Origin: Naegleria gruberi
Lineage: Eukaryota
DNA length: 64,000 bases
Strand: one strand, 5' to 3'
Assembly: GCA_000004985.1 (NCBI GenBank)
Contig: GG738916.1
Position 1 is the stretch's first letter; each line of letters starts with the position of its first letter. The notes below the pieces were generated by a model. That model was not told the origin of the DNA, did not search any database, and saw only the letters and a program-made list of their open reading frames with translations. Shown here piece after piece: positions 14,823-61,044 of the stretch. The position numbers and the translations under genes were made by a program.

Positions 14823-15977
14823 TTACTGTTCGTCATGATCTGCAAATTTCCAAATGTAAATAGTAAGTGTGGCAGCTGCTACTGCTAAAATTACACCCCA
14901 AATAGCCAAAGACTGATTGATGAGAGAATCGTTTGCTGGTGGTTTCCATTCTTCTTGTTTTTTGTTTTTCTTTCGTTTGTTAGAGAGAAGAGGTTGTCCA
15001 ATTGTCATGGCATTGGTCATCTTTGGAGGAATTTGATTCTTCTTTGGAAGTGGTTGACTTGGTTCAATATTAAATCCAAGAGCTTGTAAAATTGGTGAGA
15101 GAGGAGATCTAGGTGAGTGAACTGGAGAGGAGAAGGTAGCTGATTGTGGTGAGAGAGGGCTTGGATAGTTCTTGAGATATTCATCATTGAGAAGTTGTTC
15201 TTTGGTCTTTTCTAGATCGTCTTCTGAGCTTTCTTCATCTGAAATTTCCAAATTGGACAGCAGGGTTGAATCATCATTGGTGAGTTCACTAATTCTATCC
15301 TTTGAAGTGATGTGAACTGTGCACAGTTTATCATAGCAGGAGATTAAATTCATAAAATTAGGTTTTGGCACTTGGAATGGAATATTTCTGATTGGTAGAC
15401 TCTTTAGGTCCATTTCGTTCCACAATAATTGTTCAATCATATCTCTATTAATGTTACCAGGACAATAGACGAATGAGCAGTAAACTTTTTGTTGACCTTC
15501 TCCATCAAAATATTTCTTCCAAGTTTCAGTTAATAATTCGGTCAACTTTTCCTGGAATTTCACCTCTTGATTTCTTCTAATTTCACTACCGGCAGATTTT
15601 GCCTTATGTCCAGTTTGAATGTCGTGTTGTAATTGTCTTCCTCCTTGCTTCTTTCTAGATACATAATTCGAAAAAGTCTTGTGAACTATTGCCTTCCCTA
15701 AGGATGGATCAAAAATTGCTCCAGAAAAGTGTCCACCATGCATAATACACACAAAAATCAAATCACTCTTTGATTGAGGCAGCATGAATTTATATTCCTC
15801 CTGATTAAACCACGCATTCCAAAAAGTTAAATATTTATCATCATCAATTTCCAATCCGAACAATCCAGGAATTTGATTTAAATTCTTTTCAATCTTTTTC
15901 AATGGTTCTTGTTGAAAGAGGGCCACAATTTCCTCCTGATTAATTTTATATTTTCCCACTTTATGTTCCATCATCAT
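14823..15977 (-). CDS. VLRF1-domain protein (Vms1/ANKZF1-type release-factor-like domain) with C-terminal transmembrane tail.
   Basis: True ATG at 15977 (the track start at 15980 is TTG). Segment IFVCIMHGGHFSGAIFDPSLGKAIVHKTFSNYVSRKKQGGRQLQHDIQTGHKAKSAGSEIRRNQ resembles the VLRF1 core (HAGYFAGAI…HKTFHRYTVRAKRG.AQ… in ANKZF1, recalled from memory). C-terminal hydrophobic helix AIWGVILAVAAATLTIYIW. No ankyrin or zinc-finger modules. Confidence 0.45.
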   Translation of the reverse strand: MMMEHKVGKYKINQEEIVALFQQEPLKKIEKNLNQIPGLFGLEIDDDKYLTFWNAWFNQEEYKFMLPQSKSDLIFVCIMHGGHFSGAIFDPSLGKAIVHKTFSNYVSRKKQGGRQLQHDIQTGHKAKSAGSEIRRNQEVKFQEKLTELLTETWKKYFDGEGQQKVYCSFVYCPGNINRDMIEQLLWNEMDLKSLPIRNIPFQVPKPNFMNLISCYDKLCTVHITSKDRISELTNDDSTLLSNLEISDEESSEDDLEKTKEQLLNDEYLKNYPSPLSPQSATFSSPVHSPRSPLSPILQALGFNIEPSQPLPKKNQIPPKMTNAMTIGQPLLSNKRKKNKKQEEWKPPANDSLINQSLAIWGVILAVAAATLTIYIWKFADHDEQ

Positions 15978-16360
15978 CAAAAGCCTAGAATATTAAACTA
16001 TTTAATATTTAAATATATTATTAATAAATAGATGGTTAAATTATTCTACAATCCTATCCGATAAAAAAGTCTGTTGACGATGAAAAGATTACTATTACAA
16101 TAGAGAGAGACACCTAGTTATCTTTTGATATTTTTTTATAATCAAATTTCGAATATTTGTGACTTTTTCCCGCCAATTACAATAATTTCTTTTTTACTTC
16201 ATTAAAGAGAATGCTCTTCATCAGATCTCGCACTTGCCCTTTATTGTTCTGGAAAACTTCAAGGCAATTAGAGCATTCTGGTTGACAAACATCAAATAAA
16301 CTTTATTAAAAAAAAATAGAAGAAACAAATTCCTATTCTTTGAATCATCACTGAATACAT

Positions 16361-20075: not shown

Positions 20076-21069
20076 TTAATAATTATCAATGTAGGCAGCT
20101 CTATCATTAGCTCTATTCAACCATCCTTGCAAGAATTTGTTATTGGCAGTTCCTGGTCTTCCCCAATACAAGTAATCTTGTCTGTGTCTTTCGTTTAATT
20201 GTCTGGCGAAAGCTTTTGGATCTTGTCCATTGTAACCACCAAATTCATTAAGGTATTGTCTTGATCTACCAGTACCAGAGTTGACAGCAATATCAGAACA
20301 GACATAGAAAGCAGGTTGTGGTAAGTTAGAACATCCTCCAGGTCCAAAATAATTTTCAGAATATAATTGAGCTGCACTTGATTTGTAAAGTGATGGATTT
20401 TGGTTATAGGCATAATAGCAAAAGTCAGCTGGATGACCAGAGAAACCATTATTAAATGGTGCAAAGAAGCCATTTCTATTATTCCAACATTCTCTGTAAA
20501 ATTTCAAAATTTCAGTTTTTCGAATACAATTGAAAAGAAACTTACGATGGAGTAACACCCATACATGTATAACCAATCTTTCCTTGGAATTCATTACCAG
20601 AATCACTTGCCCAATTTTGACATCTTCCTTCACTCTTGAATATTTCTGCCAATGTTTCAGCTGCCTTATCACCAGTCTTGCTGTCAGGTCCAGAATATGA
20701 TTCTTGACAGGCCATCTTTAAAAATTGAGCAGAAACCCATTGATTATCTCCAATACGAGCCCACTTGACACCATTAACATTACTAGTTTCGTATACAGTT
20801 ACTTGAGTTTCTGGTCCTAAAGTTTTAACAACTTGTCCACCAGGAGAAGTTCTAACATTCAATGCATTATCAACATTGGTACAACGAGTTTCAGGCCAGA
20901 ATGATTCACTATCAGACAATCCAGAAAAAGAGGATTTGGTCAATTGGTGTCTAATTTCTTGAACGATAGCTTTGGCCAATCTTCTTTCCAAGCTCAAGGC
21001 ATTCAAGCTGCTTGCAACCAACAGGACAGAAAACAACACGGTAGCAACAATGAGTGTGCTAGATTTCAT
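20076..21069 (-). CDS. Secreted protein: signal peptide + bacterial-type SH3 (SH3b-like) domain + C-terminal lysozyme/peptidoglycan-hydrolase-like domain. 2 exons, about 313 aa.
   Basis: Exons (minus) 21069..20546 and 20493..20076, intron 20545..20494 (GTAAGT…TTTTACAG). Frames of the two track ORFs (20542..21114 and 20076..20672) join exactly. Signal peptide MKSSTLIVATVLFSVLLVASSLNA. SH3b-like segment NVRTSPGGQVVKTLGPETQVTVYETSNVNGVKWARIGDNQWVSAQFL. C-terminal Cys/Gly/aromatic-rich domain (GYTCMGVTPSECWNNRNGFFAPFNNGFSGHPADFCYYAYNQNP…) of bacterial flavour; exact family not assignable by eye. The upstream M at 21114 is probably 5'-UTR. Confidence 0.6.
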
Positions 21070-21567: not shown

Positions 21568-23320
21568 ATGCTTTCTTTTTTACGCAAGGCTTTGACACAC
21601 AACAATAACAATAATAATAACAATAAGAATAACAATACTGATAACAATAATAATAATAATAGTGATAACAATCATTTTATTCCTAATGATATTTTAATAA
21701 TAATATTTCAATTTCTTAATCAACAAGATTATATAAAAATATCATTTGTTTGTAGATATTGGAGATTTGTTGTTCAACAACCATTCCGAAAGGAATTTAC
21801 AAATTTTATTTTAAACTCTTCATATTCAATAGTTTATTGTACATTTATTATTAATGCATTTGAGTTTTTTAAATTCTTTTCTTCCATAACATTATAACAC
21901 TGTACCTGAATCAACATTTAAAACTCTGCTTTCTTCAATGAAATTACAAAGTTTATTTATTGATTCTTGTGTTGTTAAAAATAATATACCATTCAATTCT
22001 GTAAAACAATCTAATATAACTGAATTAGGATTAAATTGTAAAATGAAAAAGAAAGATTTACGTGCTTTATTTATTGTAATTCCAAATTTGAAACATTTAA
22101 GTTTAGGAATGGTAGTAACCGAATGTTTAATTAACACAGAATCATTTCTGAGTACACATTGTCATAAATTAGAAACACTCCATTTACAATTATTACCTGA
22201 AAATCAAAAAAAAATTGTAAAATTATTACATGGAATATTTAATCCATCAACAACAATATCCAATCTCATTGATATTAGAATATTTGTAACAGATAATAAT
22301 CCAACAAGTAATAGAAAATTAAATAATTTTACATTTAATTTTAATTCATTTCCAAATTTAAAATATTTATTTCTTGATATTACCTATATTTATACATTAG
22401 AATCAATTAGTAATGTATTAAATTCAAATAATATTTCAAAATTACAAGAATTTGGATTTGGAACTATTAGAAAAGCTATTGAAAAATTACAATTTAATTC
22501 GAGTGAAAATTTACAAAATTTAAAAAAATTATTTTTAAATAGAACAGAAATGATGACAAATATTGATAATCTTCCTTCATTAGAATTATTATATATAGAT
22601 GAATATGCAAAAAAACATTATTCCGCTACAAAATATTCAAAACCATGGAATTTAGCATCTAATGTGAAAATGCCATCTCTAAAATATTTACATTTAAATC
22701 TTTTTAATGAAACTCATTTACCTGATCGATTAAATGTGGAACCATTTAAAAATATTAAATATTTTTATTTTGAATCTGAATATAATATTGATTTATCAGA
22801 ATTGAGTAAATTAAATTTAGAAATATTAATTCTTAAAATTTCTGAAGAATATAATAAGAATATACTTCATCACATTTCTAAAATATCAACATTGAGAGAT
22901 TTAACATTTAGTAATCCTATTAGTGAAATTGATTTGAAATTACTTTGTAAATTACCAAATTTAGAATATCTGAATATTAGATTGGAATTTTATAGTGAAA
23001 CATCTTTTACTTTTAATTCACTAACTACACTCTCAATTCATTCAAAAAATTTGAAAGGATTAAATTTCTTTCAAATATCAAATTTACCAAAATTTAAAAC
23101 TTTACTAATTCGTAATCCTTATGATAATAACTATACATGGTGGTTGCAACCATTATTTCCAAATTTACAAATAATTAAAGCAAGTACTGACAGTTTTGGA
23201 ATATTTTTAACATCTCAATATAATGATGATATGAATTTTGGTGAGTATGAAGTTTCACAAAGAGCAGCAAATCATTTCCAAAATGAAAACGTATGGCTCT
23301 TTCCAAAAAAATTTATTTAA
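21568..23320 (+). pseudogene. F-box/LRR protein, paralog A of the 27373..29145 gene, disrupted by an 8-bp indel (frameshift) at about 21885-21890.
   Basis: About 95% nucleotide identity to 27373..29145 over gene plus about 150 bp of 3' flank. Paralog B reads cttccataacattatttttccataatactgtacc where A reads cttccataacattataacactgtacc. This splits A into ORFs 21568..21897 (F-box part, IPNDILIIIFQFLNQQDYIKISFVCRYWRFVV) and 21938..23320 (LRR part). Confidence 0.6.
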
Positions 23321-24031
23321 TATTAAAGCTCTGTATCAGAGGTTTCTCCTTGGTCACAGTTGATTTTTTAGAAGGATCTCCTTCAGCCAATATCTTTGGT
23401 TTCAAATGGTGAATTCAAGCAAGCCAATGCTGAGAAGGCCAAAGTTGACAATGATTATGTTTGTAAACATTTCAAATCCTATTTTTCAAAAAATTCAAAT
23501 AAAAAGTTGGTACATCATCATAGTTGTTATTTATCATCATTATAAAAGCCTCTTGGATGGTTCAAGAGATGCTGAATTCAAATGTTATAGAGATTGAACA
23601 GAATATTGTTGTACATTATATTTATTGTACCCAAGAAGGAACTTTTGGAATAAAGGACAGTTCCTTCAAGTTTACCAATTCAAATGCCTTTCATTTGGAA
23701 TAAGCCAAGCTCCCAGGAACTCACCAAGATTATGAAAAAACTGGTAACCAAGTGGAGACAACAAGGTATTATTTTGTTCCTAAAATTCAGAAAGAAAAGG
23801 GTGTCTTTACTCCCTGACTCAAACTGAAGCAATTTAGACTTCAAACGTAATATTTCCATCATTTGCAAGCCTAAGAACTGAAAAAGGATAAGGAATTGCT
23901 TTAGTGTTGAGAAATGAAGGAGAATTTTGTGAAGAATTAAGACAGGCCAAAATTAAATCCTTACAAGTCTGATTTCTAACTTGGAAAATTTATTTATTTA
24001 TTGATTGGCCCATGGTTTTACCTCATTTCCA

Positions 24032-26504
24032 TTATTTTCTGTTTACTCTCAACCAATAATCGATAATAACTTTCAAGAAATTATTGCATGGTATATTTTC
24101 TTGACAAGATAATTGGATTTTTTGTAAATAATCAAGAGTTAAATTATTTGAGCAAAATATCTTGAAATACTCAACTAGCTCTCTACAATCATTATTATTT
24201 TGTGAAACTGAAGCTAAATTTAGTAATATAATAAATTCAGTATCATTAATGGAATATAATTTTTCAACAATCAAGATACAGACATGTTTAACAATCCATG
24301 TAATATCCAATTGTTGTGCAATGATTAAAATACCAACCAAATCATTCAATTTAAGGTAATTGAACTCATATCCATAACATAATTTACATATGATTTGTAA
24401 TATTGTATTAATTTTAGCTGAATTATTGAACAAATCAATAATCCAATGATCTGATACCATCATTTCAATGAATTCATACAAGTCAACCACATTATTTTCA
24501 TTATTTTTAAATAGAATATTTAAAACTGAACTATGAACGGATAGAATTGATTTATGTAATTGCAATAATTCATTTTTATCCTTATTAATAATTACATGAA
24601 TATCACTATTACTTTCATCATTATATAATAATTTTAATGATTCAGTTACATTTTTGGCAATATTTTCAAGATTATCAATTTTATAATTAATTTGTTTAAA
24701 TGGTTGTTTAACATTATTAATTTTATCTTGAATAATTTCGAATAATGGATCTGATTTCAATAAAGTTGCATTTTCTTTAATAAATGCAAGACACTTATTT
24801 GCCAACAATAGCAAAATACTATTTTTAGCTTGTTTTAAAATATTTAAAGAAAGATAATTATTAACTATTCGTAAAATCCTCATAATGTTATCTACATTCA
24901 TTCTATTTGAAATGTCATTAAATAACAATAATTTAATTTCATGCTTGATATCATTAATATCATTTAATATAAATAGACAAGTTACTAAATTTAATTCTAA
25001 TTCTCCAAATGAAATGAAATTAATAAATTTATCATAATTACTAAATAAATCATCTATATTTAAACAATTTAAATCAATAATTGCGTTTTTAATTAAATAA
25101 TATAAAACTTTTTGGTCATTCTCATTTAAATGTTCAATTATATCATTTTTAATTAAATTATAAAAATCATTTGAAATATTTTTTAATAAATTTAAATCTA
25201 AATAAAAATTAGAATTAATTTCATAATTGAACTTAAAATTATCAGTTACCATAATATCATTAATCTTGAGACTATTCTCATTATCTGTTTCATGAATAAA
25301 AATAGTAAAATTTTTACCACAACAAATTTGAATTTCATCACCTTCCTTAATAGTAAATGGTAATTCAATTAATTTTAGTTCATTGGCTGATTTATTAGCA
25401 TATCCTAATTCGCCAAATTCATTAGATCCAAATGAATAGAACTTTTGGTCTACTGTTTGCAAAACACTGTGGAAGGTACCACTTTCCATATTAATAATAT
25501 TATCCATATTTGCTTGTTTAGAATTATAGTCAATATATTTGCATTCATTATTATATAACGATAAAATTTGATATTCATTCAATATTAATTGATCATAATT
25601 TTTCTCAAATTTAAACTCATTATAATTATTATGTAATTTAATTACTTTTTTAGGATTGTAATAATCTGCCAAGCCATAATCAATTAAAGTATAATCTAGA
25701 ATTTACAATAGAAGAATCATTAAAAATAATGAAACTAGTTCTTCCATTACATTTAATATCCTTAATATCTTCAATATTCTTATTAACTAATTTGGTAACA
25801 TTCATAAAATTATTTAAGGTAAAATAATCTTCAACATGTAATTTACCATTTACAATACTTTCAATTACAAATGGTTGGAATGATTGTGAATATTCATTCA
25901 TTCCACAAACATACAATTCATTTTCAAATGTTGTGAAAAATGTCAAATGAAATGTTACAAATATTTTGTTTACTTTTAACTTTTCTAAATTTGTATTTTG
26001 TAATAAATTAACGGCTACATCATTTGATTTTTTAGCAATGATAGCCAATTGTCCATGTTCATTATTACCAATACCAAATATGGAATTTAATTTAGATAAA
26101 AATACAACATGTTCTTTACCAATCGCAAAATCAATAATTTTGTCACTAGTATTTAAATTATTAAATTTAATCAATGTAGGAATATTAGAAATATTATTAA
26201 TAAATGAACAATTTCCCATTTTGTAAACATATCCCTTACGCGTAAGAAATATGCACAATTGATCTTGACTTTTAAATTTAATAATCTTATCATTAATTAA
26301 ATAATTTTGTAAATAATCAATTTTATCAAAACATGTATCATTTAATTTTGTAACAGTAATAATATCACTTTGTTTCTTCCAGAATCCATCTCCGCATCCG
26401 TAAACAAATTGTGATTTAGAAGAATTAATACCGAAAGCAGTGTTATTAGGTTCTGTTTCGTCGTCCACTACTTGATCAACATGGTGAATGGTGAATTGAT
26501 TCAT
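24032..26504 (-). CDS. RCC1-repeat and BTB-like domain protein (RCBTB-like), present as two ORFs in different frames.
   Basis: ORF 26504..25680 (true ATG at 26504) and ORF 25672..24032 (track start is a TTG). RCC1-like blades (GIGNNEHGQLAI, YSFGSNEFGELGY). A BTB-like segment (LQLHKSILSVHSSVLNILFKNNENNVVDLYEFIEMM). Very Asn/Ile-rich. The junction at 25672..25682 needs a -1/+1 shift or a non-canonical short intron. Confidence 0.5.
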
Positions 26505-27372
26505 TTTTTTTTATAGAGTGGTCTCTCGGTTGTTATTGATACAAGAGACATTAATAAACTTGTACACCTTTTATTTTGTTATAGATTGTTACAACAAATA
26601 TTGTGCTTACTCAGCATTGCATTCATTGGTTTTGTCTAGCTAGATCGGCGGAAATGAAATCTCATTCGTGTGATTGATGTGAGAGATGTTACGCGCCAAA
26701 ATTTCTACACCAAAAAATAAGCAAAGCCACTTTTTCGAACTCTTATTTGAAAATCCATTAAGGAAATTAAACTCTCAGTACTTTCAAGAAATACCTCTAC
26801 TCATCATCATTGGTATTTAATTCAATCAACATAAATCAGCATCAATTTGGAATATTTCAATTAGAGTAGCTGGGATACATCTCACCAAAAGTAATAAGAG
26901 CAATATTGTGTGATGGTGTTTCTTCTTGGAATGAAGAAAGTTGCCAACCTCGGAAATATCAAACATTATCATTAAGCTGTAATTCAACATCACATTATAT
27001 TTATTTTTATATTAATAGTAATACTTGTTCATTAGGAATTTCTTCAACTAATTAATATATTTTCATCATGAATTCCAAAAACATTGTATGATTATTAGGG
27101 ATGTCTAATCTAATATCACCATCAAGAGAGTTGGATTATTTGTATTCATCGAGTTGTGGAATTTTACTTCATCATACCTTATCATCAGCAAGCTCACTTC
27201 AGATCATTAAGGTAAATATCTTAATGGTCATCATCAACCAGTTGCAGATTAAAACTGTGATTTAATGTCTCAATTAAGTTGATTGCTATGTTTGGAAAAT
27301 ACACGAACGATTCAATATTTCAATTTTTAAAAAGGAAGGAAGATTCTTCATGACTTTCAAAAAATTAAAAAA

Positions 27373-29145
27373 ATGCTTTCTTTTTTGCACAAGGCTTTGA
27401 CACACAACAATAACAAGAATAACAATAATAATACTAATAATACTAATAACAATACTGATAACAATAATAATAGTGATAACAATAATTTTATTCCCAATGA
27501 TATTTTAATAATAATATTTCAATTTCTCAATCAACAAGATTATATAAAAATATCATTTGTTTGTAGATATTGGAGATTTGTTGTTCAACAACCATTCCGA
27601 AAGGAATTTACAAATTATATTTTAAACTCTTCATATTCAATAGTTTATTGTACATTTATTATTAATGCATTTGAGTTTTTTAAATTCTTTTCTTCCATAA
27701 CATTATTTTTCCATAATACTGTACCTGAATCAACATTTAAAGCTCTACTTTCTTCAATGAAATTACAAAGTTTATTTATTGATTCTTGTGTTGCTAAAAA
27801 TAATATACCATTCAATTCTATAAAACAATCTAATATAACTGAATTAGGATTAAATTGTAAAATGAAAAAGAAAGATTTACGTGCTTTATTTATTGCACTT
27901 CCAAATTTGAAACATTTAAGTTTAGGAACGGTAGTAACAGAATGTTTAATTAGCACGGAATTATTTCTGAGTACACATTGTCATAAATTAGAAACACTCC
28001 ATTTACAATTATTACCTGAAAATCAAAAAAAAATTGTAAAATTATTAAATGGAATATTTAATCCATCAACAACAACAATATCCAATCTCATTGATATTAG
28101 AATATTTGTAAAAGAATATTATACAACAAGTAATAGAAAATTACATAATTTTACATTTAATTTTAATTCATTTCCAAATTTAAAATATTTATTTCTTGAT
28201 ATTACCTATATTTATACATTAGAATCAATTAGCAATGTATTAAATTCAAATAATATTTCAAAATTACAAGAATTTGGATTTGGAACTATTAGAAAAGCTA
28301 TTGAAAAATTACAATTTAATTCGAGTGAAAATTTACAAAATTTAAAAAAATTATTTTTAAATAGAACAGAAATGATGACAAATATTGATAATCTTCCTTC
28401 ATTAGAATTATTATATATAGATGAATATGCAAAAAAACATTATTCCGCTACAAAATATTCAAAACCATGGAATTTAGCATCTAATGTGAAAATGCCATCT
28501 CTAAAATATTTACATTTAAATCTTTTTAATGAAACTCATTTACCTGATCGATTAAATGTGGAATCATTTAAAAATATTAAATATTTTTATTTTGAATCAG
28601 AATATAATATTGATTTATCAGAATTGAGTAAATTAAATTTAGAAATATTAATTCTTAACATTTCTTTAAAATATAATAAGAATATATTTCATCACATTTC
28701 TAAAATATCAACATTGAGAGATTTAACATTTAGTAATCCTATTAGTGAAATTGATTTGAAATTACTTTGTAAATTACCAAATTTAGAATATCTTTATATT
28801 ACATTGGAATTTTATAGTGAAACATTTTTTACTTTTAATTCACTAACTACACTTTCAATTCATTCAGATAATTTGAAAGAATTAAATTTCTTTCAAATAT
28901 CAAATTTACCAAAATTGAAAACTTTACTAATTCGTAATCCTTTTGATAATAACCATACATGGTGGTTGCAACAATTGTTTCCAAATTTACAAATAATTAA
29001 TGCAAGTACTAACAGTATAGGAATATTTTCAACATCATCTCAATATAATGATGGTATGAATTTTGGTGAGTATGAAGTTTCACAAAGAGCAGCAAATTAT
29101 TTACAAAATGAATATGTATGGCTCTTTCCAAAAAAATTTATTTAA
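27373..29145 (+). CDS. F-box/LRR-repeat protein (intact paralog B).
   Basis: 590-aa uninterrupted ORF. Poly-Asn N-terminus, F-box (IPNDILIIIFQFLNQQDYIKISFVCRYWRFVV), then LRRs (LPNLKHLSLGTVVTECL…LPNLEYLYITLEF…). Confidence 0.75.
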   Translation: MLSFLHKALTHNNNKNNNNNTNNTNNNTDNNNNSDNNNFIPNDILIIIFQFLNQQDYIKISFVCRYWRFVVQQPFRKEFTNYILNSSYSIVYCTFIINAFEFFKFFSSITLFFHNTVPESTFKALLSSMKLQSLFIDSCVAKNNIPFNSIKQSNITELGLNCKMKKKDLRALFIALPNLKHLSLGTVVTECLISTELFLSTHCHKLETLHLQLLPENQKKIVKLLNGIFNPSTTTISNLIDIRIFVKEYYTTSNRKLHNFTFNFNSFPNLKYLFLDITYIYTLESISNVLNSNNISKLQEFGFGTIRKAIEKLQFNSSENLQNLKKLFLNRTEMMTNIDNLPSLELLYIDEYAKKHYSATKYSKPWNLASNVKMPSLKYLHLNLFNETHLPDRLNVESFKNIKYFYFESEYNIDLSELSKLNLEILILNISLKYNKNIFHHISKISTLRDLTFSNPISEIDLKLLCKLPNLEYLYITLEFYSETFFTFNSLTTLSIHSDNLKELNFFQISNLPKLKTLLIRNPFDNNHTWWLQQLFPNLQIINASTNSIGIFSTSSQYNDGMNFGEYEVSQRAANYLQNEYVWLFPKKFI

Positions 29146-43477: not shown

Positions 43478-45155
43478 ATGTCTGTTGTATTTGACGAATT
43501 TGGAAGACCATTCATCATCCTCAGGGAACAAGATAAGAAACAAAGATTGAAGGGATTGGAAGCCATCAAGGTTTGTACTGATAATTATCATGAATCACCA
43601 ATATAAAAATTGTACCGAATATTTTTGACTTCTATACAACAATAACAACAATATCAATCATAATAATAATTTAATAATATCTAATACAACAACAACAACA
43701 ACAACAATTAAATAGGCTAACATCCAAGCTGCTATTAAAGTTGTGAATACATTAAAGACCTCTCTTGGTCCAAGAGGGATGGATAAGATGATGGTCAGTC
43801 CCGATGGAGATGTTACAGTGACTAACGATGGTGCTACAATCCTTGAAAAAATGCAAGTCAACCATCAAGTTGCTAAGCTTTTAGTAGAACTTTCTCAATC
43901 ACAAGACGACGAAATTGGTGATGGTACCACTGGTGTTGTTGTTTTGGCTGGAGCTTTGCTCGAAAAATCATTGGAATTACTTGATCGTGGTATTCACCCA
44001 ACCAAGATTTCTGAAGGATATGAAAAGGCTTGCGAATTTGCCTGTGATGAATTGGAAAAAATCAGTGATAGACTTGAATTCTCAAAGGATAATATTGAAC
44101 CACTTTTCAAGACTGCTTCCACAACACTTAACTCTAAGATTATTAACAAGTTTAGAGAAAAGTTCGCCAAGATGTGTGTTGATGCTGTTCTTGATGTTGC
44201 CGATATTGACAGAAAGGATGTTAACTTGGATTTGATTAAAGTTGAAGGAAAGACTGGTGGTAGACTCGAAGATTCATGCCTTGTTGATGGTATTGTTGTT
44301 GACAAAGAAATGAGTCACCCACAAATGGTTAAATCAATTGAAAATGCCAAGATTGCTATTTTGACTTGCCCATTCGAACCTCCAAAGACCAAGAATAAGG
44401 GTAACGTTGAAATTGACACTGTTGAAAAGTATAATTCATTGTATGAACTCGAACAAAACTACTTTGTTGAACAAGTTAAGAGATGTAAAGACTCTGGAGC
44501 CAACCTCATTATTTGTCAATGGGGCTTTGATGATGAAGCTAACCACTTGCTTCTCCAAAATGAACTTCCATCCGTTCGTTGGGTTGGTGGTGTTGAAATT
44601 GAATTGATTGCTATTGCCACTGGAGGCCGTATCATTCCAAGATTTGAAGAATTGTCAGCTGACAAGTTGGGTTCTGCTGGAAGAGTCCGTGAAGTCACTT
44701 TCGGTACAACATCTGATAAGATGATTTTCATTGAAAACTGTGCTAACACTAAGGCTGTCACTATCTTTGTCAGAGGTGGTAACAAGATGATCATTGAAGA
44801 AGCCAAGAGATCTATCCATGATGCTCTCTGCGTTGTAAGAAACCTTGTCAGAGACAATAGAATTGTTTATGGTGGTGGTTCTGCTGAAATTGCTTGTTCA
44901 TTGAGATTATCTAACGAAGCTGATAAGGTTACAGATGTTGACCAATATGCTATTAGATCTTTTGCAGATGCTTTGGAATTCGTTCCGCTTGCTCTTGCTC
45001 AAAACTCTGGTTACAATCCAATCGAATTTGTTTCAAATGTCAAGGGCGAACAATGTATGAATAAGGGAACTAAGGACATGAAGGACCAAGGAGTCTTTGA
45101 AACACTTGTCGGTAAGCAACAACAAATGAGGCTGGCCAGTCAAGTTGTCAGATGA
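43478..45155 (+). CDS. T-complex protein 1 subunit epsilon (CCT5) chaperonin, 2 exons. C-terminus possibly affected by a 1-nt frameshift.
   Basis: Exon 1 is 43478..43570 ([31 protein letters not shown]). Intron 43571..43715 (GTTTGT…AAATAG) contains a (CAA)n run. Exon 2 is 43716..45155. Near-identical blocks to CCT5: [96 protein letters not shown]. Confidence 0.85.
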
Positions 45156-56179: not shown

Positions 56180-59100
56180 ATGAGAAGCGCAAACAACATT
56201 GTCCTGTTATTATTCTTGTTGTTGATGATGACACTCTTTTCCACAACAACAACAATAGGATACTTTTCGTATGTGAAAGCAACAACTGCAAGTTCCACCA
56301 CTAAATTATCATATATTTCAACAATTGCAGGAAGTGGATTAATGGCAGCATCAGGTATGGAAGGAGATGGTGGTTTGGCTATCAATGCCCAATTAAATGC
56401 TCCCTCCTATTCAATAAGTATTTCCCCTCTCAACAATAATAATTACACTGAAACACTTATTATAGATACACAAAATGGAAGAATTAGAAAAATATTTATG
56501 AATGGTACAATTTTCACATTACCAATTAATATGCAAACAGGTAACAAGTTTAAACCAACCGTGGCTGTTTTATTTAGAAATGAATTATACATGACAGATG
56601 TGTTAAATCATAGAATTCTTTCTGTTTCTCTGTCAAGTTATTTGGTGACCATTGTTTCTGGAAAGCAAAACTGTAATGGACATTCTGATTGTGATGGTTT
56701 TAGTGGTGATGGTGGTTTAGCTAGTAGAGCAAAATTAAATTCACCAAATGGTCTCTCTATTTCTCAGAATGGTGAAATTTACATTGCTGACACATTGAAC
56801 CATAGAATCAGAAAGATTAATAGTTATGGAGTGATTTCAACTATTGCTGGAACTGGTAGAGCATCCTTTGGTGGTGATGGTGGATTTGCTGTTCTTTCAC
56901 AATTAAACTCTCCAAATGGTGTTCATATTTCACAGAATGGTGAAATTTACATTGCTGATACATTGAACCATAGAATTAGAAAGATTAATAGTTATGGTGT
57001 GATTTCAACAGTGGCAGGAACTGGTAGAGCATCCTTTGGTGGTGATGGTGGTTTGGCTATAAACTCTCAATTGAATTCACCATATGGCGTCCATGTTTCA
57101 CAGAATGGTGAAATTTACATTGCTGACACATTGAATCATCGAATTAGAAAGATATTTGTGAATGGAACTATTACAACCATTGCTGGAAGTAGTAGCGATG
57201 GATCATTTGGTGGTGATGGTGGTTTGTCAATTGCGAGTCGACTTAATTCTCCTAAAGGTGTTTTTGTTTCTCCAAATAATAATGAAATATTAATTGCAGA
57301 CACATCAAATAACAGGATTAGAAAGATCATTGAATGTGGTACAACTCTTCAATTACACAAGATNNNNNNNNNNNNNNNNNNNNNNNNNNNNNNNNNNNNN
57401 NNNNNNNNNNNNNNNNNNNNNNNNNNNNNNNNNNNNNNNNNNNNNNNNNNNNNNNNNNNNNNNNNNNNNNNNNNNNNNNNNNNNNNNNNNNNNNNNNNNN
57501 NNNNNNNNNNNNNNNNNNNNNNNNNNNNNNNNNNNNNNNNNNNNNNNNNNNNNNNNNNNNNNNNNNNNNNNNNNNNNNNNNNNNNNNNNNNNNNNNNNNN
57601 NNNNNNNNNNNNNNNNNNNNNNNNNNNNNNNNNNNNNNNNNNNNNNNNNNNNNNNNNNNNNNNNNNNNNNNNNNNNNNNNNNNNNNNNNNNNNNNNNNNN
57701 NNNNNNNNNNNNNNNNNNNNNNNNNNNNNNNNNNNNNNNNNNNNNNNNNNNNNNNNNNNNNNNNNNNNNNNNNNNNNNNNNNNNNNNNNNNNNNNNNNNN
57801 NNNNNNNNNNNNNNNNNNNNNNNNNNNNNNNNNNNNNNNNNNNNNNNNNNNNNNNNNNNNNNNNNNNNNNNNNNNNNNNNNNNNNNNNNNNNNNNNNNNN
57901 NNNNNNNNNNNNNNNNNNNNNNNNNNNNNNNNNNNNNNNNNNNNNNNNNNNNNNNNNNNNNNNNNNNNNNNNNNNNNNNNNNNNNNNNNNNNNNNNNNNN
58001 NNNNNNNNNNNNNNNNNNNNNNNNNNNNNNNNNNNNNNNNNNNNNNNNNNNNNNNNNNNNNNNNNNNNNNNNNNNNNNNNNNNNNNNNNNNNNNNNNNNN
58101 NNNNNNNNNNNNNNNNNNNNNNNNNNNNNNNNNNNNNNNNNNNNNNNNNNNNNNNNNNNNNNNNNNNNNNNNNNNNNNNNNNNNNNNNNNNNNNNNNNNN
58201 NNNNNNNNNNNNNNNNNNNNNNNNNNNNNNNNNNNNNNNNNNNNNNNNNNNNNNNNNNNNNNNNNNNNNNNNNNNNNNNNNNNNNNNNNNNNNNNNNNNN
58301 NNNNNNNNNNNNNNNNNNNNNNNNNNNNNNNNNNNNNNNNNNNNNNNNNNNNNNNNNNNNNNNNNNNNNNNNNNNNNNNGCCAATTCTGTGAAATTCCAA
58401 TTTGTAATGGAACAATGGCAACTGATGCTTTGGTTTGTAATGGCAATGGTACATGTATTCAACCAGATATATGTAATTGTACTTCAGAATGGGGTGGACA
58501 GTATTGTGAAATTCCATATTGTAATGGAATATTGGCAAATAATATATCTGCTTGTGAAGGACATGGTAACTGTATTAGCCCAAATATTTGTGAGTGTAAT
58601 TCGACATATGGTGGAGAATTTTGTGAATCTCCAAAATGTAACTTTACACTGGCAACTGATCCTTATGTATGTACTGGAAATGGAGAATGTATTCAACCAG
58701 ATGAATGTATTTGTAATACCAATTGGACTGGTCAATTCTGTCAAACTCCACTTTGTAATGGTACGAGTGCAACTGATGCATTGGTTTGTAATGGAAACGG
58801 TCAATGTGTGAGTCCAAATATTTGTGAATGTAATTCAAGTTGGTCAGGAGAACTTTGTGAAATTCCAATTTGTAATGGAACTTTGGCCATTGATGAATTT
58901 GTGTGTAGTGGTAATGGTGCATGTATTGGTCCAGATGTTTGTGAGTGCAATTCTACATGGGGTGGACAATATTGTGAATCTCCAAAATGTAACTCTACAC
59001 TGGCAACTGATCCTTATGTATGCAATGGTAATGGAGAATGTTTTCAACCCAATGAATGTATTTGTAATTCAAATTGGACAGGTCCATTTTGTGAAATTCC

Positions 59101-61044
59101 AATATGTAATGGTATTAAGGCTACCAATGATAGTAATTCAACTTTAACCACCAATGAAACAGTGGTGTGTAGTGGAAATGGTCTTTGCATTCGTCCAGAC
59201 GAATGTTTATGTAATTCAAATTGGGCAGGTCAATATTGTGAAATTCCAATATGTGGAGATGTTTTGGCAACCAATGAAACAGCATGTAATGGCAATGGTA
59301 AATGTGTTCAACCAAATGAATGCATTTGCGACTCAAATTGGACAGGTCAATTATGTGAAACTCCAATATGTAGTGGTATAATTTCCACTAATATATCTGT
59401 TTGTAGTAGAAAGGGTGATTGTGTTGGTGCCAATCTTTGTATCTGTTTAACTGGTTGGGGAGGTGAAGATTGTTCCACACCAATTTGTAATAATATTCTA
59501 TCTACCAATGCTACTACCAATACTGATAGTAATGGAACTATAGTTAGCAATAATACATTGGTGTGTAGTGGACATGGTGAATGTACTAGTCCAAATCAAT
59601 GCAATTGTAATTTAAATTGGGGTGGTAAACAATGTGAAATACCTAAATGTCAAGGTATTTTGGCTAATAATGAGGCAGTTTGCAACTCTAGAGGATATTG
59701 TGTCAATGAAAATCAATGTCAATGTAATGAAATGTGGGGAGGTCAATTTTGTGAAATTCCATTTTGTAATGGAACTTTAGCCACTGATTCAAATGTGTGT
59801 AATTCATTGGGAGTATGTGTTGGTCCAAATCAATGTAAATGTCTCTCAGGTTGGGGTGGTAAACTATGTACAATACCATCATGTAATGGAATTCTTGCAT
59901 TTGATGAGAATGAAGTGTGTATCGCAAAGAGTAATGCATGTAGTGGAAATGGAAAGTGTATTGATCTTAATCGATGCAAATGTGACAAAGGTTGGACTGG
60001 ACCATTATGTTCAACACCAACATGTAATGGAACATCGGCCACTGAACTAACTGTTTGTAATGGTTTTGGAGTGTGTGTTGCACCAGATACGTGTAATTGT
60101 TATAGANNNNNNNNNNNNNNNNNNNNNNNNNNNNNNNNNNNNNNNNNNNNNNNNNNGCAACACCAACATGTAATGGAATTGTTGCCACAGATCCAAACGT
60201 GTGCAATTCAAGTGGTGTTTGTGTCGATTNTGATAAGTGTGAATGTTTTTCTGGTTATGGAGATGCATTCTGTGGCACTCCAACTTGTAATGGAATTCTA
60301 GCAACTCAAATTAATGTAGAAGTAGCTGTTTGTAGTGGTCGTGGAGTGTGTTTGGGACCAAATAAGTGTGTCTGTGAACCGAATTGGGGTGGTTTCATGT
60401 GTAATATTCCAAAATGCTACGATATTGAAGGAGACAAGAAAGGTGCTTGCTTTGGAAATGGTGATTGTATAGCAGTTGACTCATGTAAATGTTATCAAGG
60501 TTATATTGGTTATGATTGTCGTACTGTTGCTCCTGATAATAATTGTGGTGGATCAGGTTCAGGAACTACTTTTTGGGATGTTGTCTTGGAGGGTATGAAG
60601 ATAATTCGTACAGTGTTATCCGGTGCAGTGTCACTAGCTAGTTCAATTAGTGATGTTATTTCATCCTTAGGAAAAGGTTTGATTGACCTTCTTGGAGGAA
60701 TTGTTCCAAGCATTGCAAATATTTTCAGCTCCATTCCAAAATTAATAGAGAAAATTATTTCCTTTATTATCAGTACGGCAGAGAAGTTTATTAACTTTAT
60801 TCTCGGTTTATGGACAAAGATATTAGATTTTATATCATGGTTATTGACCTATCTTCCAAAAATATTTTCTGGAGTTACAACTCAACAAGTGGCAACAGTT
60901 TTGATTGTCATTGGTGTTGTCATACTTTTAATCATTATTTGTGTATTGTTGTATTTACTTAGTCCATATGTTACATTGGTACTTGAATTTTTCAAAATTA
61001 TTACCAGTTTTTGCTCAGCTCGTAAGAAGGCACTTAAGGAGTAG
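56180..61044 (+). CDS. Giant type-I membrane protein: signal peptide, 6-bladed NHL propeller, about 28 tandem EGF-like repeats, single TM. Interrupted by gaps 57364..58379 and 60107..60156.
   Basis: ORF 56180..60301 continues as ORF 60199..61044 once gap-induced frame offsets are allowed for. EGF units have the form C-E-I-P-x-C-N-G-x-x-A-T-D-x-x-V-C-N-G-N-G-x-C-x-x-P-x-x-C-x-C-N-x-x-W-x-G-x-x, period about 114-120 nt. C-terminal TM is VATVLIVIGVVILLIIICVLLYLL followed by a short tail. Stop at 61042..61044. Confidence 0.7.
57364..58379. other. Assembly gap (1016 N) between the NHL and EGF parts of the giant gene.
   Basis: Run of n. Confidence 1.
58378..60540 (+). repeat. Coding tandem-repeat array (EGF-like module, about 117-nt period, about 18 units visible after the 57364..58379 gap).
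   Basis: Recurrent nucleotide strings tgtgaaattccaatttgtaatgga / tgtaatggaaatgg / aattggacaggtcaattttgtga at regular spacing. Protein-level C-x-I-P-x-C-N-G periodicity. Confidence 0.8.
60107..60156. other. Assembly gap (50 N) inside the EGF array; single N at 60219.
   Basis: Run of n. Confidence 1.

Follow-up and report, generated by a model that had tools for sequence, protein, structure and literature searches.

An intron-containing gene of Naegleria gruberi for a probable secretory SH3b–GH108 peptidoglycan hydrolase

Bacterivorous amoebae must break peptidoglycan, and one locus of Naegleria gruberi raises the question of whether a wall-degrading enzyme of bacterial type has become part of an amoebal genome. 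The locus lies at positions 20076–21069, on the minus strand, of a 64,000-nucleotide stretch of contig GG738916.1 (assembly GCA_000004985.1), and this whole stretch is called the window below. The original prediction had placed a secreted protein there, composed of an SH3b domain and a muralytic domain of bacterial type, and this core idea holds. Overall, we consider it likely that the product of the gene is a peptidoglycan hydrolase of the secretory pathway in a bacterivorous amoeba of the Naegleria clade. Its catalytic domain belongs to glycoside hydrolase family 108 (GH108).

Domains, active site and gene structure

The GH108 domain covers amino acids 136–313. Pfam PF05838 (Glyco_hydro_108) matches amino acids 141–248 with 51.4 bits against a cut-off of 21.2 (E = 1.6e-13), spanning profile positions 2–85 of 85, and the same family is matched by 18/18 aligned relatives. 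In addition, PHROG 315 ('endolysin') is matched at 7.7e-11, and the NCBIfam scan of the protein gave no match. The expectation of a C-terminal muralytic domain is thereby borne out as far as a bacterial and phage hydrolase family is concerned, but Pfam gives no match to the CHAP or NlpC/P60 families that had been suggested. In the PDB sequence search, the single sequence yields a weak match to 7dnp (E = 0.14), and a profile yields E = 0.0023; the input of the profile and hidden Markov model (HMM) searches had P0001, a homologue from Naegleria lovaniensis, as its first row and the two window exons as extra rows.

The catalytic lobe (amino acids 136–250, motif EGRCQNWASDSGNEFQGKIGYTCMG; 20268–20664, minus strand as for all features of the gene) is interrupted by the intron. 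In Brucella abortus SagA and in T4 lysozyme, catalysis relies on a Glu/Asp/Thr triad, which in SagA consists of Glu17, Asp26 and Thr31 (PMC8334348). Glu147 (codon 20629–20631), the predicted general acid, is equivalent to SagA Glu17 and T4 lysozyme Glu11, and the family profile aligns it to the Glu of the EGGY motif in 7dnp, 2is5 and 2ikb. Asp156 (20602–20604), equivalent to SagA Asp26 and T4 lysozyme Asp20, follows nine residues later, which is the same spacing as in SagA. Thr168 (20566–20568), past a 7-residue insertion, is the sole candidate for the third triad residue, and the alignment suggests its equivalence to SagA Thr31 and T4 lysozyme Thr26. Glu is present in 39/41 sequences of the subfamily described below, Asp in 41/41 and Thr in 41/41, and all three occur in 16/16 more distant GH108 sequences; that is, Asp and Thr are each found in 57/57 aligned sequences.

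The C-terminal helical lobe (amino acids 251–313; 20079–20267) is PG_binding_3-like and has a terminal GWLNR motif. The corresponding GWxxR motif is conserved, and PG_binding_3 itself is matched at E < 1e-3 in only 2/18 relatives. A structure was predicted for P0001, a protein of the same architecture with 62% identity in alignment A2, and the mean predicted local distance difference test (pLDDT) score of the model is 86. This model shows the two-lobe alpha-helical lysozyme-like fold known from SagA and TtsA, Foldseek concurs, and the superposition on SagA spans both lobes.

The SH3b domain (amino acids 59–121; 20707–20895), bracketed by Cys63 and Cys121, had been predicted and is borne out by the fold, which in the homologue model is an SH3-like beta-barrel resembling known cell-wall-binding SH3b domains. 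Pfam SH3_3 (PF08239) comes close to its cut-off, matching amino acids 69–118 with 25.7 bits against 27 (E = 1.3e-5). SH3_3 is also matched at E < 1e-3 in 4/18 relatives (best 2.7e-8), and the Naegleria homologues have precomputed PF08239 matches in the database. The N-terminus begins with a predicted signal peptide of about 24 amino acids (MKSSTLIVATVLFSVLLVASSLNA; 20998–21069). By hydropathy it is of the secretory type, as proposed, with a Kyte-Doolittle 11-residue mean of up to 2.87 over residues 6–17, and a comparable segment is found in 17/17 full-length homologues.

Two connecting segments complete the protein. Amino acids 25–58 (LSLERRLAKAIVQEIRHQL...; 20896–20997), a helical spacer or possible pro-region, form an amphipathic helix between the signal peptide and SH3b, which is conserved in the Naegleria paralogues P0012 and P0015, whereas other lineages lack it. 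Its counterpart in the homologue model is helical but of low confidence, and the segment might serve as a propeptide or interact with a membrane. For the linker (amino acids 122–135; 20665–20706), pLDDT is low in the corresponding part of the homologue model, and alignment A2 varies there.

The cysteines of the enzyme domain tend to occur in pairs. Over the 57 sequences, C150 and C169 are both present in 48, singly in none and both absent in 9; for C177 and C200 these numbers are 9, 1 and 47, and for C229 and C240 they are 45, 2 and 10. This co-occurrence points to three disulfides in the enzyme domain, C150–C169, C177–C200 and C229–C240. In the endoplasmic reticulum, the eight cysteines of the protein would probably form four disulfides, with C63–C121 around SH3b as the fourth.

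The gene runs from the ATG at 21069 to the TAA stop at 20076–20078, exactly the span that had been predicted, and its two exons give a spliced coding sequence of 942 nucleotides, i.e., 313 codons and a protein of 313 amino acids in agreement with the residue numbering used there. Two introns had been claimed, and only one was found, of 52 nucleotides (20494–20545, GTAAGT...TACAG), which is spliceosomal and falls after the second base of codon 175. The first reading frame, from 21069, ends at the TAA inside GTAAGT at 20545, and the second runs from 20493 to 20076–20078. Exon 1 (20546–21069; 524 nucleotides) encodes amino acids 1–174 plus two nucleotides of codon 175 and is identical to the database protein P0004; exon 2 (20076–20493; 418 nucleotides including the stop) gives a tblastn identity of 100% over amino acids 176–313.

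Three observations support the splice at 20494–20545. The junction GVTPS/ECWNNRN is colinear with uninterrupted homologues, including the intronless, paralogue-like P0005 on contig L011 (for example, GVTPSECWNNRN versus GVTPSQCWNNRN and GVIPQECWENRN). In the metagenome contig L001 (ENA ERZ929261), which is 99% identical across the gene and its flanks, the 942-nucleotide coding sequence differs from that of the window at 5 positions (4 synonymous, 1 giving F188L), and the 52-nucleotide intron differs by 2 substitutions and a 1-nucleotide indel. Finally, the paralogue L010 has an intron at the identical codon position and phase.

This gene also calls for caution in annotation, as prokaryote-style callers break it at the intron into two 'proteins'. 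Actually, P0004 is such a call, ending at the TAA within the GTAAGT donor. As seen with P0004, P0012, P0015, P0017 and P0013, prokaryote-style calling on metagenome contigs splits amoeba genes at introns into 'SH3_3-only' and 'GH108-only' fragments, and the true two-domain architecture is masked in protein databases.

Relatives and possible origin

When 1.84 billion representative proteins were scanned in full with the HMM, 1365 GH108-like matches were obtained, with only 41 clusters at E < 1e-30. Beyond these 41, the scores drop to the level of ordinary GH108 proteins. This drop indicates that the gene belongs to a small, distinct and divergent subfamily with the motif EGxCQN...DxGN...G(Y/F/W)TCxG. 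The named eukaryotic members come from N. lovaniensis (two genes), N. fowleri, the anaerobic gut fungus Anaeromyces robustus and the cnidarian Hydractinia symbiolongicarpus, the last on a 37-Mb scaffold; members occur in at least three Naegleria species. The N. lovaniensis homologues bear the database labels 'TtsA-like glycoside hydrolase...' and 'SH3b domain-containing protein'. Many further members are eukaryote-like, with signal peptides and cysteine-rich, LysM or SH3b N-terminal modules.

Identity to the paralogue L010 (1561–2605) is 63% for exon 1 and 78% for exon 2, and the intron of L010 is longer. Because this paralogue comes from the same sample (ERZ929261) as L001, the organism or a close relative has at least two SH3b–GH108 genes. 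Among the other relatives, P0005 has neither SH3b nor intron and lies on the eukaryote-like contig L011, adjoining an ABC transporter. The N. fowleri proteins P0152 and P0306 (947–948 amino acids, A0A6A5BG60) have a C-terminal GH108 beginning at '...GKIGYTCMGVTP', without the EGxCQN segment and the catalytic Glu and ending ahead of the GWLxR motif; they may reflect merging or truncation in the gene model and not a true fusion.

Among 185,579 species genomes of bacteria and archaea, a scan turned up only three loci, two in a Kamptonema metagenome-assembled genome (MAG) and one in an Actinomycetota MAG, with 51–55% identity, and the same cluster of proteins is also represented in cultured isolates of Kamptonema and Phormidium. 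The bacterial members lack SH3b and carry a membrane anchor at the N-terminus. The relative from bacteria that is closest to the amoeba enzyme lies on the Kamptonema MAG contig L006 (138–3628), where the GH108 gene overlaps the stop codon of the M23 peptidase gene upstream of it and adjoins a MobA/VirD2 relaxase and NikA/MobC. This arrangement resembles a module of a mobilisable or conjugative element in which two enzymes open peptidoglycan, and the context suggests that the wall to be opened for a transfer apparatus is the cell's own and not that of prey. A metagenomic representative, P0160, is an M23–GH108 fusion. On the other Kamptonema contig, L005 (407–2943), the neighbours include an Hsp20 and a 559-amino-acid protein without a Pfam match. 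No match was obtained with tblastn of the catalytic domain against phage and plasmid collections, and none in a scan of IMG/VR, so no phage or sequenced-plasmid donor has been found.

In a neighbour-joining tree that we calculated for the catalytic domains of 57 sequences (200 bootstrap replicates), most subfamily tips are classed as 'eukaryote-like' or 'bacteria-like' from their features. The window protein clusters with the SH3b-less P0005 and P0006, and the genes of N. lovaniensis and N. fowleri form the sister group of this cluster (96.5% bootstrap). The eukaryote-like sequences stand together, above a basal grade of bacterial membrane-anchored forms that join canonical GH108. With a weakly supported backbone, this suggests but does not prove that the eukaryotic sequences are nested within bacteria. 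In addition, the C150/C169 pair is found in 7/16 of the more distant sequences, mostly bacteria-like ones with a membrane anchor, and its presence already in these forms favours a bacterial origin of the subfamily.

Intron positions vary among the paralogues. One position is common to the window gene and L010; N. lovaniensis P0001 is interrupted by two introns at other sites, and P0003 by a single one close to the C-terminus. These introns were gained independently, in a lineage-specific manner. The coding sequence has a GC content of 0.38, and of 0.25 at third codon positions (GC3), inside the range of the neighbouring genes. Since the nearest relatives are eukaryotic, paralogues with independent introns exist and the GC content is host-like, any transfer should be old. 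The proposed horizontal acquisition is plausible in that the GH108 literature concerns almost only bacteria and phages, the eukaryote-like sequences stand above a bacterial grade and the relatives of this hydrolase domain are not only eukaryotic, but the recency it implied fails: GC and GC3 are within the host range, several paralogues carry different introns, and at least three Naegleria species have members of the subfamily. That is, a bacterial origin of the gene appears plausible but old.

Based on the above analyses, the eukaryotic members would most likely derive from a membrane-anchored muramidase gene, at least one of which lies beside mobilisation genes, via an old transfer; in Naegleria, later diversification would have proceeded via paralogues, intron gains and the presence or absence of SH3b. 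We would go further only tentatively, to a possibility that we regard as real and rather short of probable: the subfamily could be an experimentally untouched class of eukaryotic lysozymes, i.e., disulfide-locked GH108 enzymes (EGxCQN...GYTCxG) from mobile-element-borne, membrane-anchored muramidases of cyanobacteria and other bacteria, captured by eukaryotes, patchy in Heterolobosea, anaerobic gut fungi, a cnidarian and many protists, and each time re-armed with a different targeting module (SH3b, LysM or cysteine-knot repeats). If true, GH108 would join the lysozyme types described from eukaryotes to date, among them the i-type, g-type, GH24 phage-type and GH25 enzymes.

Proposed function and alternative explanations

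In the proposed mechanism, the signal peptide would route the protein into the endoplasmic reticulum, from where it would be delivered to phagolysosomes or released extracellularly. The SH3b module would dock it onto the bacterial cell wall. The GH108 domain would then act as a T4-lysozyme-like two-lobe 'clamp', in which the catalytic lobe works together with the peptidoglycan-holding helical lobe at the C-terminus, and the beta-1,4 bond between N-acetylmuramic acid and N-acetylglucosamine would be cleaved with Glu147 as general acid and with Asp156 and Thr168 positioning the water. The purpose may be lysis and digestion of bacterial prey, or antibacterial defence.

Several points weigh against this interpretation. 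We have found no enzymatic or expression data in the literature for the window protein or any member of the subfamily. The signal peptide was assigned from hydropathy, with an approximate cleavage site, and the SH3_3 score lies slightly under the Pfam cut-off. PG_binding_3 (PF09374) reaches 12.9 bits, well under its cut-off of 24.6. The modelled protein is the N. lovaniensis homologue and not the exact window protein, and the disulfide pairs were derived from the alignment rather than from S–S distances in the model. In the tree, the backbone bootstraps are low, and the classes of most subfamily tips come from features only. At the active site, the Tyr of the canonical EGGY is replaced by Cys150, and the 7-residue insertion precedes the catalytic Thr; with these two changes, the specificity could differ from that of the characterised GH108 enzymes.

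We regard it as unlikely that the substrate is instead a polysaccharide other than peptidoglycan, for example a chitin- or chitosan-like polymer of fungal prey or of the amoeba's cyst wall. It is somewhat less likely still that the protein is a catalytically inactive peptidoglycan binder, that is, a lectin, sensor or opsonin on a lysozyme scaffold. The activity is a prediction, and Q or K replaces the Glu in two subfamily members, so inactive derivatives do exist in the subfamily; in the window protein, however, Glu147, Asp156 and Thr168 are all kept. Of the 41 members of the subfamily, 39–41 have the respective residue, as does every canonical outgroup sequence.

Both domains come from families that are typically bacterial or phage-borne, and on this ground one could suspect bacterial contamination, or a recent non-functional bacterial insertion in the assembly. 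We consider this highly improbable, because the gene has a GT-AG spliceosomal intron, eukaryotic genes lie on both sides of it in one 64-kb contig, and its composition is host-like. Moreover, a metagenome contig of independent origin has the same gene and intron, and most of its differences are synonymous; paralogues and other homologues with introns of their own exist in N. lovaniensis and N. fowleri. The N. lovaniensis homologues sit on 656-kb and 689-kb scaffolds. With its intron, eukaryotic flanks, host-like GC and these scaffold-borne homologues, the gene is truly integrated in a eukaryotic genome. Beyond the gene itself, the window shows no synteny with the two N. lovaniensis loci, so the genes can be called homologues but not one-to-one orthologues. 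Our preferred reading remains that of a secretory peptidoglycan hydrolase encoded by the amoeba itself.

The host is also clear from the neighbouring genes. The original prediction had assumed a dictyostelid, and this has to be given up in favour of a Naegleria-clade heterolobosean: the CCT-epsilon of the window (43743–45155) is 89% identical to that of N. lovaniensis and 83% to that of Willaertia magna, with no dictyostelid among the top matches, and it is 93% identical to that of one further assembly. The closest named homologues of the lysozyme gene are likewise from N. lovaniensis and N. fowleri.

Neighbouring genes and known systems

The other window genes are ordinary eukaryotic ones, i.e., calpain, Paf1, CCT-epsilon, F-box/LRR and NHL-repeat proteins. 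The genes just upstream of the lysozyme gene (21938–23320, 24032–25672 and the F-box/LRR gene at 27373–29145; region 21568–29145) have a GC content of 0.21, a GC3 of 0.09–0.15 and poly-Asn runs. The remaining window genes, with GC contents of 0.33–0.39, stand in marked compositional contrast to the AT-rich genes in 21568–29145. At 14823–15980 (minus strand), an open reading frame strongly matches Pfam bVLRF1, 'Bacteroidetes VLRF1 release factor' (1.2e-32), which could point to a peptidyl-tRNA hydrolase of the Vms1/ANKZF1 type or to some other gene of bacterial type. Finally, a reading frame of 1373 amino acids at 56180–60301 is overlapped by frames of more than 350 amino acids in several frames and on both strands (57294–58811), which suggests a long low-complexity or repeat-rich coding region.

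No literature combining Naegleria and GH108 was found. The HHpred match of the N. fowleri 'Nf lysozyme' is 2DQA, which we take to be an invertebrate-type lysozyme. The primer-derived termini of this protein (A0A6A5BDE0, PMC11964265) also differ from those of the GH108 homologues, and it was rejected as a GH108 member. Naegleria has been reported with several lysozyme genes (PMC9928731), and the only eukaryotic GH108 in the searchable literature are transcripts in anaerobic gut fungi, among laterally acquired carbohydrate-active enzymes (bioRxiv 10.1101/487215).

The theme of a bacterial wall hydrolase captured by a eukaryote is already well known, and a GH108 gene in Naegleria adds to it. If the enzyme is active, a GH108-type muramidase would join the eukaryotic antibacterial toolkit, and its disulfide stabilisation and SH3b targeting would make it a candidate for a robust lytic enzyme. 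The subfamily ties Naegleria, anaerobic fungi and Hydractinia to cyanobacterial muramidases near mobilisation genes, and it offers another test case for repeated cross-domain capture of antibacterial genes, as for GH25 (PMC4241558).

Among the captured wall hydrolases of eukaryotes are the GH25 muramidases (PMC4241558), the phage-type lysozymes of bivalves (PMC5303276) and the NlpC/P60 proteins with SH3b domains of Trichomonas vaginalis (PDB 6BIM and 6BIQ; PMC12612818). Like them, the window enzyme is a wall hydrolase of bacterial type that resides in a eukaryotic genome, with a patchy distribution and a presumed antibacterial use; it differs in its catalytic family, GH108. A further system compared, with a GH24 or GH184 catalytic domain, also belongs to another family and shows only 14–23% identity.

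Within GH108, the window protein shares PF05838 with the N-acetylmuramidases SagA of B. abortus (PDB 7DNP), TtsA of Salmonella Typhi and gp61 of coliphage N4, together with the Glu/Asp/Thr triad, the Glu-to-Asp spacing and a C-terminal helical lobe ending in GWxxR. Unlike these, its gene is eukaryotic and contains an intron, and the protein has a signal peptide and an N-terminal SH3b, while SagA is a two-domain protein of 174 residues without an SH3b module. It also differs in having EGxC for EGGY, the 7-residue insertion, two or three probable disulfides and a weak PG_binding_3 match (12.9 bits). A further comparison is with the GH108 proteins of Kamptonema and Phormidium (WP_007358322, WP_449415976) and of the Actinomycetota MAG. 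They have an N-terminal transmembrane anchor in place of the signal peptide and SH3b, and no introns, but share with the window protein the subfamily motif, in them EGGCQN...DSGN...GFTCMG, the same four invariant cysteines, and 51–55% identity across the whole catalytic domain.
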